NCBI GenBank assembly: GCA_951406725.2
Contig: OX597816.1
Location: 135,780,001-135,844,000 of the forward strand
Origin: Octopus vulgaris
Taxonomy: Eukaryota
Reading direction: 5' to 3'
DNA: 64,000 nucleotides
The first letter of the stretch is position 1, and each line of letters starts with the position of its first letter. A program made the position numbers. Shown piece after piece: positions 3,808-14,600 of this stretch.

Positions 3808-6800
3808 TTATGAAATCATTTTTAGTCTTCTTTTTTGCTGTGGTTTTGTTTTGTATTTTTTTGTTTTGTGTGATCTTGTGGCAAATAAAATCATATTAAC
3901 CTACTTAAAATTTATTTTATGATTTTGTTGATAGATATTTGGTAGCTTTAACAGCTTTAATGAAAATAAATGTTAAGAATTAAATAATTGAATTTAATAT
4001 CTCCATGTGATCTTCAGAAAATCACAGATAATTGTCACTTATATTCAAGGCCTACTAATATACAAATGTAATTTCTCAAGAATTTTGGTTTTGATTTCAT
4101 ACTTAAATTGTGTTTGGTTTTAATATTTTTAACTGATATAAAACATGTGCTGATAATTGTTATAAAATTATAATTTTTAATGCTAATATATCTAAACGAA
4201 ATTTTGCATACGATAACATAGTGCTAAACATTGTTTTTGTTTTGTTTGTTTTGTTTTTTTCTTAGTTTATATTTAGGTGGTATGATTTAATATATTAACA
4301 TCAGAATTAAAATCAATTACAAATTTAAAATTCAACATTTTTATTAAGTTATGAAGTTTAGTACTGAAATGAAACTTGATGCTTTACCGTATCTAGTTTT
4401 TGTCTTTCACATTACTATGTTCAAATCCCACTGAGATTTGACTGATCATGCCTGAGTTGATAAAATAAACATAAGTAATAATATATTGCAGTCATTAATT
4501 GATATTCATTCCTGTTTTATTTTCATACAAAAATTATTTTGTGCTTAGAAAAAAACTAGATTTCATCTGAGTTTCATTCAGAGCTTAGTTCATAGCTACT
4601 TGGAGTTCAGGAATTTAAGTTAAATATCTGAACCCTTAAGGAATGAAAATCAAGAATAATTATATATATATTCACATAATAGTTAAGAGAAATCATTTAT
4701 TATGTTGATGCTTTGAATTTATTATGCAAGTTACCGTTCAAGAATTTGTGAGCTATACATTGAAAAATAAATGATATTTTTTTGGTTTTGTAAATTGAAA
4801 ATGGTGCATATCTATTGTATTGCAGACTTTTAAATTACTTTCACTAATAATTTAGTAATATATTGCATATTGCATTGATGCATAAATAATGTAATGTAGC
4901 AATCTTTACTACAACATCCTGATGCAGATGTCTACTTTTCCTACTATTTCTTACTGACTTTTGGTATATTTTTTAGTGTCCTGCGACCTCTGATTGTGTT
5001 CCTATGTCGGGCAGTATTTTTTACCGGAGGATTTCATTGGATTTCTGTGAAAGGATCGAGGGCTCGCACTGAACTGGCTCCAATTGTTGCTCTCGCTCCG
5101 CATTCCTCTTACTTCGATGCCTTGCCTGTAGTATATCTAAACTTAACAACAGTAGTAGCAAAGTCAGAAGTGGAAATGGTGCCATTTTTTGGAAGTATGC
5201 ACCTCATTTATATTTTTCTCATGTCACTTGTCACGTAGTTCACTGTAGTTAGATATTGTTACTTCAAAATTCTTTCGCATCTTTTTTTTTTTTATCAAGT
5301 GCCAGACTTTTATTTAAGATTAAATGTCGAAGCCTCTTTTGTTTAGAAAAATGAAATGTGTAGGCTTACAAACTGGTGTCTTCAAATTTTCCTTTTCAGT
5401 TGCCTTTCTAGTATTGTTTAATACGTGTTATGCATGTTTTGCATGGCCATTTAATACATTTGCTTGATGTATTTGCTGCAGTGATGAAAGTCTTAATACT
5501 TAACCATGCAAAATATTGTTGGGTGCCAGCCAAGTATCATATGAAGAGTTAGATCAATATTAGACATTAACTCAAAGAAAAGAACCTGGCATTTCTGTTA
5601 TTATAACACATTTTTTTAATTATAATTTATAAAAGCTACTTACAGCATTCTATCATACAGATAAATATCAATTATCAAGTCATACTACAATTATCCAATT
5701 AATGATTAACTTCGCTGAGCCTCAAAGTATTCTGTATGAAAATCAGAAGGGTACTAAGAATTTAATAAATTTTATATAACTTATTTCTTGTAGTTTATAC
5801 TCCCTGTGGATGTTGCATTGTTTTGGAATCTTTCTTGACTAAGCTGTAAATAATCTGTTTTAATGATTTCCTTTCTTTCTAGATTTCTAAAGCTGCTTAT
5901 GTATGTAAATATTTATGTAAATTTTAAATTTGCTGCATTTCATTCTTTATACTACATAGTTTAACATCTTTCTTTTATCTGAAGTAGATTGTATTGAAAC
6001 TGAAAGCCTTTTCTTCTTCATTTACAAATTTTTAAGTATATAAAATTTATTCTTTTCAGTTTAAAACATAATTTTTCATGCTTTCTTACCTATTACTATT
6101 AAGAAATTCATTCTCAGACTCAAGGCACTGAAGCTTTTCTTTCAGTTTATCTGTTCATCTATATTGCTATAATGTATTCATTTCAATACTTGTTTTTTTT
6201 TATGAAAAGGACAACTTTTATTGCCTTAAATTGTGTTTTTTATGAGCAGGGCTCTTTATTTCCATTATCTATCTAGAGTATATATACTAATCTAACAGGT
6301 TGATGCAGAGTTTCTAGCCATCAAAAGTGCTGTTTTAAAGAGTTATATTTTATTCAAAAAATATTTGGTATAAAAAGTATGTTAGATATTGAAATATTTT
6401 CCCATTATAGCTTGAAATAATTTCTTTTTATACATTCTTTTTAAAATTACTTTTAAATAATTTTCTTTTCCATTCCATTTTGCTGGGGACTGGAAATACA
6501 TAGCAGTAGACTTATTCATATTATTTCAATGGACTGATCTAATCCTAATTTCCGAAATAAGTTGAAATTCAGCTTGCTTCTTTTATTTAAAAATCAAATT
6601 CTTTACTGACTAGTATTAGTTTATATTCATTATTGCATAAAATTATCACACACATGTGCATGCACATACACATGCACACACACACACACACACAAATAAT
6701 GATCATTAAATATTATCCTTATTGTTAATTTAGTATCCATGTTGGTGTGAGCTGGACTGATATATATTCTTTTTTAAAGCAATGTTTTACATGGTTAAAT

Positions 6801-11600: not shown

Positions 11601-14600
11601 AGTTTTGCCTTTAAAAGGACACACATTAAGAAAATATAAATAAAGAAAATTCAGCTTCTAATGAATAATTCAAATAATGAGGTTCTACCCCAAGGCTTTC
11701 TTTTGTTATTTATATTAGGTAATAACATTAGACTACCACAAAGTTACTATCAACAGTATACCTTGAAAATACATAAAATGTAGGACAATATTTAAACAGT
11801 GGAATTAAGAAAGAACTATTCTGAACTATTTAATTATGTTCAATAATATGAAGGATCCAGATTGAGTAAATTACATACATGCTACCCAAAATAGGATCAT
11901 AAACTGTATGGACACCATTGAATATTTGAAGCTTCTATTTCAAAACAAAAAAGTATAGGATGAACCAGCATAATAAGAAAGTGGGAGAAACCGTTGATCT
12001 CAGATTTCTGGAGGCATAGAAAGCAAGAATGAACAACTAGTTTTTCCTTTACTTTTATGGATATGAAATTTCATAAAGTATGGTATATCCAAAATGTGAG
12101 AAATTTGAGTAGCTGAGCCTTTAGATATGTGCAGTTTAACATTTTTAGATGTGAGTTTTTCAGGCTGTTTCTAAGGTATCCATCACCAACTTCAACATAA
12201 AATTAACATTAACAAAATCACATCTGAAATTAAGTCAGTAACCAAAGACAACAATGTTGTACCATGACCATAACCATTTAATTTATACTGAAAGACTAAC
12301 CGTAACTAACACAATTAGATCATGGAAAAATCAATTTAGCTATTTAAGAACACATAAAAATTATTATACAGTAATCGCCATATCATAGTTCACCTATTGC
12401 AGTTTATTATTTAAGCTTACGTCAATTCCTCCGTAGTGTTGTTTTGCATTTATGATAAAATAAATATATACAAATTATAAAAATAATAAAAAACATATAT
12501 ACAGTACCGTACTGTTTCTACTTTGCAGATTTTCACCTACCGTGGGGGGTTTTGGAACGTAACGCCTGTGATATTCGAGGAATTACTGTATTCACTTTTT
12601 TAAAATTATTAATAGTAAAGTCTACAATAAAGTGTCAAATCATTTCATCCCACTTTTGTGTTCTAGTCACTGATAAAAATTCTATTGCATCATCTCAGTT
12701 CGTAAGATGAAATAGATCTAAGTAGATCTGACCAGGTTGTGGGAGTGTAAAGAAATTTTTTTGACTCTTCTTCATAAGAGACTGTATTGTTCAGAAATAA
12801 GCAAAATGTGAATACAGCAATTTTTGTGTGTTCTTAAATAGCTAAAATAGCTCTTCCATATTGTCACTTTTTAGCCTCAACACAGAGTCTCTAAAATAAG
12901 GGCAAGAACAGCTCCAAAATAGTACCTAAGTTGGTAAATTGTTTTTTAAAGCAGATTTTTGTCAGGAATACTGGTGAAGATATATAACAAAAACAGCTAT
13001 TTTACAATGACTAAGATTGTTTGATATAGATTTATTATTCGTATTCAGAAACTCTATTTTGAACTAATAATTTTTGTTTTTCTGAAGAATTATTTTTACA
13101 TTACTATTAGTAATGAGAGTCAATGTGAACTACCTCAGGCTTGGTCATTACTAGTTGTAAACTATTTCTATTTTCATTTTTTTTTTCTTTTGGTTTACAA
13201 TTTTCTTTCATGTAATGTAATTAAGTTTTCCCGTTTATTATGTTTGTATACAAATTTGTTAATAAATATGCTGATTTTCTTATATGCATCAAATACGTTT
13301 TTTATTTCATTCCTATAAACAACACTGAACGTTTTATTGCAGCTACTGGTTAATCATAGTTAATGTTATAAGCACTAGTTTTTATCCTTCCTTCTCTTAT
13401 TGCAATAGGATCGTGAACTATGTACTCCTAAAAATCTCTCGGATCATCTTCTTTGTGATGGGATTTCACTGGGTGAAAGTCAAAGGACACTGTGCACAAG
13501 CAAAAGAAGCACCAATTGTGTGCATTGCTCCCCATTCCAGCTTGTTTGATGCACTAGTATTTTTTATGATTCCTGAATTACCTGCTGTGGTGTCAGCTGT
13601 AGATCATATAAAAGTACCTTTCATCGGAAGTAGGTACCAAGTTTTTAATTTTAAATCAATTTTATTGCTATGGTTTTACCACTGCTAACTTGAGAAATGG
13701 TGAACTCTTAATCCATGTCCATTACTTTAAAGTTTCAGAGAGAGGAAGTTTCCTTCTTTTTTTTTATGTTCAGCATAGAAAGTTTTAGTTTTAGTCTTAA
13801 AGATTTTTATTTGATTTACAGCTATAGTTTATTATTCACAACAACTCTAACTTACTAACAAGTTTCTTGTATTTAAAAATAACCTATCTAATGTAGCTTG
13901 TGAAAATACATATTTGTAGGGTAGCATTTCTAATTACTTTACACTTGTATTGGCTATTAACATTTTTGCATTAACTATTGTTATCATGAAATACTGCTAT
14001 AAATATTCTCTGCATAGAAGTTTGACCAGCTTATGTTGCGGCCAGATCTACTAACAGGATGGAAAAATTTACATTGGAACCAGATGTAAGCTGTGAACAA
14101 CAGTTCATTTTCTGCAGAGCTATATCTGTTTGTGACTTAAATTACGATAGGGCCCCAGCATGGCTGCAACTTTCAAGCTGAAACTTGTAAAGAAAAACAT
14201 GCTCTCTTGTTCTTGAGAACTTCATTGAAAGCAATGTTGTATTTGACTTCAACAAATGTCCAGTATGAAAACCTCCAGGCAAAGTTTCTTGCCTTTGGGC
14301 TTCACCCATATTTCATATGTTAGATTGGAAATTTTCTGACAGACATTACCATCATAGCATATATTAAAGAACTTCTCCCTCCCTAACCAATTTTCTGCTA
14401 CTTTTAGCATGCCTTAAGTTTGTTATATCCCCTATATACTCTCTTCTTTAACTTACTCTCAATTACTTTCAACCAAAAACACTGCCATGTATAAGTTAAT
14501 ATTCTTCTTTCTTGAATAATCTCTTGTACAATGACATTACCCATACACTGCTCTTGCCGACCAATCCATAAAAAGTAAATGTAAACATGACACCTCATAT

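Follow-up and report, generated by a model that had tools for sequence, protein, structure and literature searches.

The vertebrate relatives of the gene treated here, a predicted lysophosphatidylcholine acyltransferase (LPCAT) gene of Octopus vulgaris, are LPCAT1, LPCAT2 and LPCAT4, the first two of which we take to be LPLAT8 and LPLAT9 in the numbering of the lysophospholipid acyltransferases (LPLATs). The octopus gene lies in a stretch of 64,000 nucleotides (nt) of contig OX597816.1 (assembly GCA_951406725.2, positions 135,780,001 to 135,844,000 of the forward strand; hereafter the window, in whose numbering all coordinates are given), AT-rich DNA without N, and it offers two alternative versions, exons A and B, of the segment that contains the catalytic HX4D motif. 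LPCAT4 appears as LPLAT10 and LPEAT2 in the reference list of an evolutionary survey of the LPLATs (PMC13500770). The available text of the same survey associates LPCAT1 with saturated phosphatidylcholine and lung surfactant, describes LPCAT2 as an inflammatory acetyltransferase acting on lyso-PAF (lyso-platelet-activating factor) and carries the published view that the LPCATs were duplicated in vertebrates; no word starting with 'splic' or 'exon' occurs in it.

The separation of splice isoforms with mutually exclusive homologous exons onto different paralogues after gene duplication is an already known kind of event, of which the available part of Abascal, Tress and Valencia (2015, PMC4494069) gives 11 curated cases, along with fish mitf and U2AF1 as earlier examples. 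LPCAT is mentioned zero times in the accessible main text of that article, of PMC4417111 and of PMC9741552 (their supplementary tables may list it), and a full-text literature search found nothing, among the titles listed, on mutually exclusive exons or exon duplication in LPCAT (or CG32699). The comparisons described below suggest that the LPCAT family went through such a separation. The best-supported reading, in which we place rather better than even confidence, is that the A exon was passed on to LPCAT1, and a B-type exon to LPCAT2 and, less clearly, to LPCAT4.

Two exons of the octopus gene, mutually exclusive by frame

The two exons and the introns that follow them are arranged as listed here, with the splice borders of both exons read from the DNA.

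4977-5194, plus strand: alternative exon A, 218 nt, between AG at 4975-4976 and GT at 5195-5196
5195-13408, plus strand: intron between exons A and B, 8,214 nt
13409-13629, plus strand: alternative exon B, 221 nt, between AG at 13407-13408 and GT at 13630-13631
13630-28441, plus strand: intron from exon B to the next constitutive exon, with GT at 13630 and AG at 28440-28441

Translation of exon A gives 72 full codons and a split codon at each end; exon B is one codon longer, with identical phase. Each exon opens on codon position 3 and closes on codon position 1, so that a codon is divided at either border. The first base is T in exon A, making the split codon Asn, and G in exon B, making it Lys, a difference that matches the A and B isoforms of Octopus bimaculoides in RefSeq exactly. 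Because the length of each exon is 2 mod 3, a transcript with both exons or with neither is out of frame, and when A is spliced to B the frame meets a TGA at 13414-13416, three codons into B. One of the two must therefore be used, and their mutual exclusivity has this frame rule as its only demonstrated mechanism. As neighbouring homologous exons of equal phase and near-equal length with canonical splice sites, A and B have the genomic features expected of mutually exclusive homologous exons.

The homology of the pair, like its borders and phase, bore out the initial annotation, which had placed two homologous alternative exons within 4977-13629. Exons A and B match each other at 46% identity over 66-67 residues (tblastn), and profiles of the exon run against the six-frame translation of the window found exactly two copies (E 5.6e-38 and 2.2e-28) and no third, the next best match having an E of 0.3. 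Both carry the HX4D catalytic motif (motif 1), as PHSSYFD in A and PHSSLFD in B, and its H112 and D117 are invariant across 83 aligned relatives. All the motif strings first quoted for the two exons are present in their translations, i.e. GGFH, LAPHSSYFDALPV and VVAKSE in A, and FFVMGF, EAP, LPAVVS and VPFIG in B. EAP and VPFIG/VPFFG had to be abandoned as markers of B, since they are not diagnostic (EAP is found in many A-type exons of other species).

Each exon has its own counterpart in a second octopus species. Exon A is 96% identical to the O. bimaculoides 'lysophosphatidylcholine acyltransferase 1 isoform X2' and exon B 100% identical to LPCAT isoform X1. These two RefSeq gene models carry one exon each; away from the exon all 421 of 421 aligned positions agree between them, and within it 30 of 73. 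Further afield, exon A shares 70% identity with a limpet isoform and 71% with the A exon of an abalone. When scored with the protostome exon profiles described below, window A reaches 126.6 bits with the A profile vs 72.9 with the B profile (log-odds +53.7), and window B 95.8 bits with the B profile vs 78.2 with the A profile (log-odds -17.6). The pair is thus genuine, the reading frame makes its members mutually exclusive and, as the next section describes, it is ancient.

Age and distribution of the exon pair

A profile search recovered 1,764 relatives, and the comparisons between species rest on the best 120 of these 1,764, all of them invertebrate. Among the matches listed, 25 species have at least two proteins, and in 14 of them the isoforms agree at 99.8% or more of the positions outside the exon but at only 27-44% of those within it. 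These 14 comprise nine molluscs, the brachiopod Lingula, a barnacle, a prawn and two hemichordates. The remaining 11 include species with the same exon in both proteins (Ostrea, three Mytilus species, three Branchiostoma species), two with lower identity outside the exon (Pomacea 98.4%, Crassostrea 94.3%), and Babylonia and Nucella, in which each type has a gene to itself, with 54-60% identity between the two genes outside the exon. For both types, full-length proteins are encoded on short, transcript-like contigs (1.5-3.5 kb) of other species, for example P0020 (A) and P0060 (B).

Gene models of the mussel Mytilus coruscus (P0021) and of the cockroach Diploptera punctata (P0113) translate both exons in tandem; these are annotation errors, yet they reveal the genomic order, A then B, as in the window. 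The hemichordate isoforms are 100% identical outside the exon and 27-37% inside. The dual exons that were to be looked for in invertebrate deuterostomes were thus seen in hemichordates, with three versions or at least two, although not in the listed proteins of amphioxus, considered below. The duplication is ancient and goes back at least as far as the ancestor shared by protostomes and ambulacrarian deuterostomes, with A as a derived, well-conserved type and B as the ancestral-looking one.

Several individual species deserve a separate mention. Ptychodera flava has three versions of the exon (P0081, isoform X2; P0091, X1; P0101, X3) and Saccoglossus at least two (P0084, P0095). In the prawn Macrobrachium nipponense one gene has two isoforms, named '1-like' (P0078, type A) and '2-like' (P0104, type B), that agree at all 440 of 440 positions away from the exon; elsewhere the automatic '1-like' and '2-like' naming is inconsistent, and many A-type isoforms are called '2-like'. 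In two neogastropods the A-type and B-type exons belong to different genes (P0013 and P0074 in Babylonia areolata, P0093 and P0110 in Nucella lapillus). The two Babylonia genes group with Pomacea in the tree of the constitutive sequence (SH-aLRT, Shimodaira-Hasegawa approximate likelihood-ratio test, 99), and the Babylonia/Nucella split may represent an independent passage from isoforms to paralogues.

Vertebrate-like exons in trees and profile scores

Vertebrate-like sequences were obtained by searching 1.84 billion cluster representatives (50% clusters) with a profile of deuterostome invertebrate LPCATs. We labelled them LPCAT1-like (P0128, P0132, P0133, P0150), LPCAT2-like (P0125, P0126) or LPCAT4-like (P0140, P0167, P0202, P0249, P0258, P0264), partly by the motif strings that we take to be those of the human proteins, by protein lengths and by motifs. 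APHSSYFDAIPV is found in P0132 and P0133, and IVMKAE in P0128 and P0133, both in agreement with the presumed human LPCAT1 strings, and the nearest named Atlas clusters are chordate LPCAT1 for P0128 and chordate LPCAT2 for P0126 (weak evidence, with a score gap of 0.01). The vertebrate-like representatives have one exon version each. Seven further representatives, possibly human or other mammalian, were left out of every tree and test.

The part of the protein outside the exon (424 columns, quick search) unites the LPCAT1-, LPCAT2- and LPCAT4-like rows in one clade (SH-aLRT 98), placed among invertebrate genes and with neither exon type in particular. The exon pair is older than the gene duplication, given that it occurs in protostomes and hemichordates while the vertebrate-like groups form a single later clade. 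This upholds the proposal that the splice isoforms predate the paralogues, the pair being spread across Mollusca, Brachiopoda, Arthropoda and Hemichordata.

The maximum-likelihood (ML) tree of the exon alone (75 rows, 74 columns, rooted on six unnamed distant representatives) conflicts with that of the rest of the protein. It contains a 35-row A clade (ultrafast bootstrap, UFBoot, 83; SH-aLRT 96) made up of window A, all protostome A exons (from molluscs, a brachiopod, nemerteans, myriapods, insects and crustaceans), some ambulacrarian exons and the LPCAT1-like exons, the last forming a group of their own within it (100/99). Window B, the LPCAT2-like and LPCAT4-like exons, those of amphioxus and the protostome B exons make up an unresolved basal grade. 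Under LG+G4 (fast search) a pure clade of 29 rows was obtained, consisting of 25 protostome A exons and the four LPCAT1-like rows. In the comparison of the two trees that had been suggested at the outset, the LPCAT1-like rows are thus nested in A in one tree and lie inside a single vertebrate-like clade in the other, and the B side is a grade that lacks resolution.

Profile scores agree with this placement. With profiles built solely from protostome exons (23 of type A, 20 of type B), all four LPCAT1-like rows score +16.2 to +20.5 bits towards A and both LPCAT2-like rows towards B (-10.8 and -21.7); five of the six LPCAT4-like rows lean weakly towards B (-3.7 to -10.9), and amphioxus scores -40. 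The resemblance first claimed, of A to LPCAT1 and of B to LPCAT2 and LPCAT4, thus held for the first two, more weakly for LPCAT4, and in each case for representatives without names. We also generated 100 simulated alignments, taking as their tree the best one in which the vertebrate-like exons are all kept together. The simulated LPCAT1 score had a mean of -3.1, a standard deviation of 9.4 and a maximum of 16.4, so that 0 of 100 reached the observed 18.0, and 0 of 100 reached the observed LPCAT1-LPCAT2 gap of 34.2 bits (simulated maximum 20.1). This excludes neutral divergence only, and not convergence under selection; the statistic was picked post hoc and the model has no site-specific constraints, which counts against giving the simulations too much weight.

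A probable passage from isoforms to paralogues, and the alternatives

In the sequence of events that we favour, exons A and B would be mutually exclusive tandem duplicates, each encoding residues ~70-143, by which one gene would make two enzymes with motifs 2-4 and the EF-hands in common and different motif-1 modules. A duplication of the gene on the vertebrate line would have followed, after which the A exon most probably stayed with LPCAT1 and a B-type exon with LPCAT2 and with LPCAT4, with the outcome that the splice isoforms became separated between paralogues. The exon of LPCAT1 is probably orthologous to A, to judge from its position in the exon trees, and the A and B enzymes might also differ in their choice of substrate, as in the initial prediction of a saturated-acyl activity of LPCAT1 type for A and an arachidonoyl/acetyl activity of LPCAT2 type for B.

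A number of results weigh against this separation. Approximately unbiased (AU) tests rejected none of the competing arrangements, whether the LPCAT1- and LPCAT2-like exons were held as one clade (log-likelihood difference, dlnL, 13.2; p-AU 0.253), the LPCAT1-, LPCAT2- and LPCAT4-like exons together (dlnL 19.5, p 0.191), octopus A with B (dlnL 12.3, p 0.209), all arthropod exons (dlnL 19.4, p 0.123) or, within a single tree, the exons of each of four large groups, namely arthropods, lophotrochozoans, ambulacrarians and vertebrates (dlnL 47.5, p 0.097). In a test in the style of Swofford, Olsen, Waddell and Hillis (SOWH), 5 of 26 simulations reached the observed 15.1, with fast searches that were noisy (differences to -11). 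Likelihood tests have little power on 74 usable exon columns, and the bootstrap of the 75-row exon tree had not settled. By strict identity the LPCAT1-like rows have only 2-3 of the nine A-diagnostic states (B states 0 of 4), a way of counting that is too harsh save for the S-R vs A/M/T-K pair and the GG doublet. The LPCAT4-like row P0249 scores +7.9 towards A, the hemichordate exons lie near zero on the A-B axis (log-odds -5.7 to +4.4), the six amphioxus proteins among the matches listed carry the B-type exon only, and the vertebrate-like and outgroup rows are cluster representatives without names. Lastly, the likeness of B to LPCAT2 and LPCAT4 is a shared ancestral character, because the B exons form a grade and not a clade. 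The suggestion that the vertebrate duplicates each kept one exon accordingly has the trees, log-odds and simulations on its side, and the AU and SOWH-style tests reject no alternative to it.

The main rival is convergence, by which the vertebrate ancestor would have passed on a single B-like exon and LPCAT1 would have gained A-like residues after the duplication, under similar functional demands. Trees that hold the vertebrate exons together survive both kinds of test, the strict count of A states in LPCAT1-like rows is low, and with B alone in the listed amphioxus proteins chordates might conceivably have lost A; the available text of PMC9741552 describes convergent tandem exon events as frequent between fly and human. 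ML trees under two models nevertheless nest the LPCAT1-like exons among the A exons, none of the 100 neutral simulations produced the +18-bit preference for A or the 34-bit gap between LPCAT1 and LPCAT2, and hemichordates retain a multi-exon cluster, so that deuterostomes inherited one. We consider convergence unlikely, though it is the explanation to be taken most seriously after the inheritance of A by LPCAT1.

A parallel origin, in which the exon was duplicated independently in several phyla and A and B are look-alike classes, we regard as improbable. The tree arranged by the four large groups, like that with arthropods united, passes the AU test at the 5% level, and three hemichordate variants have the near-zero scores given above; against this, A exons of distant phyla group together (83/96 in the main exon tree, a pure clade under LG+G4), they are up to 71% identical between taxa distant at the level of phyla vs the 27-44% between A and B within species, and the order A then B is shared by octopus, mussel and cockroach. 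A cephalopod-specific duplication, or an unused pseudo-exon on one side, is very improbable and already contradicted, for even if the AU test tolerates a clade of octopus A and B, the ML tree separates them, so that the grouping of A with B apart from all vertebrate sequences finds a place only among the arrangements not formally rejected; both exons are open with canonical splice sites and encode protein 96% and 100% identical to that of another octopus with its own RefSeq isoform for each, the limpet counterpart of A is 70% identical, the same pair recurs in 13 other species, and transcript-like contigs of other species (P0020, P0060) give full-length proteins of both types.

A wider version of the inheritance of A by LPCAT1 and of B-type exons by its paralogues can be put forward only tentatively. 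The bilaterian LPCAT would have provided two isozymes by swapping a 73-residue HX4D module, the two vertebrate genome duplications would have fixed LPCAT1 from A and LPCAT2 and LPCAT4 from B, neogastropods would have repeated the separation, and the module would set the acyl-CoA or lysolipid preference by which the surfactant-type enzyme differs from the PAF/PUFA-type one; as a whole we consider this possible but doubtful.

Structure of the gene and of its predicted product

Downstream of the pair the window contains ten coding exons (28442-49632), 83-100% identical to the O. bimaculoides protein. Exons of the window were searched one by one, and the whole-protein queries were database proteins, including the orthologue P0009. 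For the nine exons from 34311 onwards the limits are approximate, being the ends of tblastn matches.

28442-28615, plus strand: constitutive exon next after exon B, matching P0009 residues 144-202 at 98% identity (tblastn)
34311-34370, plus strand: coding exon
35078 to ~35116, plus strand: coding exon
38474-38527, plus strand: coding exon
40470-40556, plus strand: coding exon
43190-43318, plus strand: coding exon
43857-44015, plus strand: coding exon
44315-44437, plus strand: coding exon
47420-47575, plus strand: coding exon
49501-49629, plus strand: coding exon
49630-49632, plus strand: stop codon

The first two bases of exon 28442-28615 complete a split Lys codon, and the exon encodes ...QPVFVSRED... 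and FPEGTCTNR, which are acyltransferase motifs 2 and 3. The nine exons of 34311-49632 complete the acyltransferase core and add the EF-hand region, where the window exons are 83-93% identical to P0009. The first coding exon (orthologue residues 1-69) was not found in the window by tblastn; as it lies outside, the intron before exon A must be longer than 4,976 nt. By sequence comparison, the gene appears to be the single octopus co-orthologue of vertebrate LPCAT1, LPCAT2 and LPCAT4, with most of it inside the window.

The HX4D motif, a match to PF01553, a motif 3 of the EGT type and C-terminal EF-hands are all present, as in AGPAT/PlsC-type acyltransferases of the LPCAT1/2/4 subfamily, and the predicted product is a lysophospholipid acyltransferase of the endoplasmic reticulum type with EF-hands at its C-terminus. 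In Pfam the orthologue P0009 matches PF01553 at residues 93-215 (E 1.3e-17) plus EF-hand families; the peptides of exons A and B alone have no Pfam match at E 0.01, as expected for a third of a domain. The PDB sequence search gave 0 matches for exon A alone, and the AMPK-gamma matches to exon B alone were discarded as chance level (E about 0.5). With the whole orthologue the PDB search returned PlsC and EF-hand proteins only, and no LPCAT structure.

The AlphaFold model of P0009 has a mean pLDDT (predicted local distance difference test) of 85 and a pTM (predicted template modelling score) of 0.78, with the blocks covering 61-140 at 88-96. The alternative segment (residues ~70-143) is confidently folded in this model and consists of a long helix (68-86), two strands (91-95 and 106-110), the HX4D loop with its helix (115-123), a third strand (129-133) and a short helix (134-138). 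Going by the model, exchanging A for B would replace the motif-1 half of a PlsC-like catalytic core and leave motifs 2-4 and the EF-hands unchanged.

Other elements in the window

Upstream of exon A, open frames at 198-2215 (plus strand) hit Helitron_like_N at E 5.6e-07 and the 2B domain of Pif1 at E 9.5e-18, with a local GC of 0.41 vs about 0.30 elsewhere; by these matches the region is the remnant of a Helitron-type transposon in the intron. The intron between A and B probably contains an inserted repeat element at 6650-8613, ~1.9 kb of higher GC between (CA)n (6650-6695) on one side and (TG)n (8568-8613) on the other, with flanking runs of His/Asp-like trinucleotides. Closer to exon B, 550-1,090 nt before it, there is a 41-nt inverted repeat (12322-12362 and 12819-12859, 85% complementary) that could be a small hairpin element; besides microsatellites, this pair was the only inverted repeat in 4400-14200 in an RNA-pairing search of this one genome. 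Further downstream there are (TATG)x88 within an intron at 41980-42332 and a (TA)-rich tract of ~2.4 kb at 50314-52736, which begins ~700 nt past the stop codon; these repeats account for a dip in GC to 0.16 and for the stretches open in all six frames there.

Comparison with known systems

If LPCAT1 did inherit A and its paralogues B-type exons, the functional split between LPCAT1 and LPCAT2 would be far older than vertebrates and would have been encoded first as a splicing choice, and the 73-residue motif-1 segment would be a candidate determinant of substrate choice. Invertebrates would offer a natural experiment here, i.e. two enzymes identical everywhere outside the module. An enzyme with a swapped catalytic motif would also join the short list of separations of isoforms into paralogues, to which a second, independent one in snails would possibly add.

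Among solved structures, the fold closest to that of the modelled acyltransferase half belongs to PlsC from Thermotoga maritima (PDB 5kym; TM 0.62 on the target), whose sequence match covers query residues 70-216 (E 5.2e-7), which is the alternative exon plus the next one. It differs from octopus LPCAT in being bacterial, 19% identical and devoid of both EF-hands and an alternative module. Vertebrate LPCAT1, LPCAT2 and LPCAT4 share with the octopus protein PF01553 followed by EF-hands and the motifs HX4D and FPEGTCTNR, and the octopus gene corresponds, on the invertebrate side, to the single clade that the LPCAT1-, LPCAT2- and LPCAT4-like rows make up; it is unlike them in that one gene holds two versions of motif 1, chosen by splicing, where each vertebrate-like row has a single version.

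Among splicing events, the tandem duplicated exon substitutions treated in the available text of PMC9741552 resemble the octopus pair in being adjacent homologous exons of near-equal length and equal phase, ancient, and, as the frame predicts for octopus, used one per transcript. That catalogue, as its available text describes it, starts from human genes, so that an event lost from human genes by separation would be missing from it. The cases in the available part of PMC4494069 follow the same logic as that proposed here, with two alternative homologous exons, a gene duplication and a different exon in each copy. LPCAT would depart from those cases in that its separation would date to the base of the vertebrates and in that the module split between the paralogues holds the catalytic motif of an enzyme.

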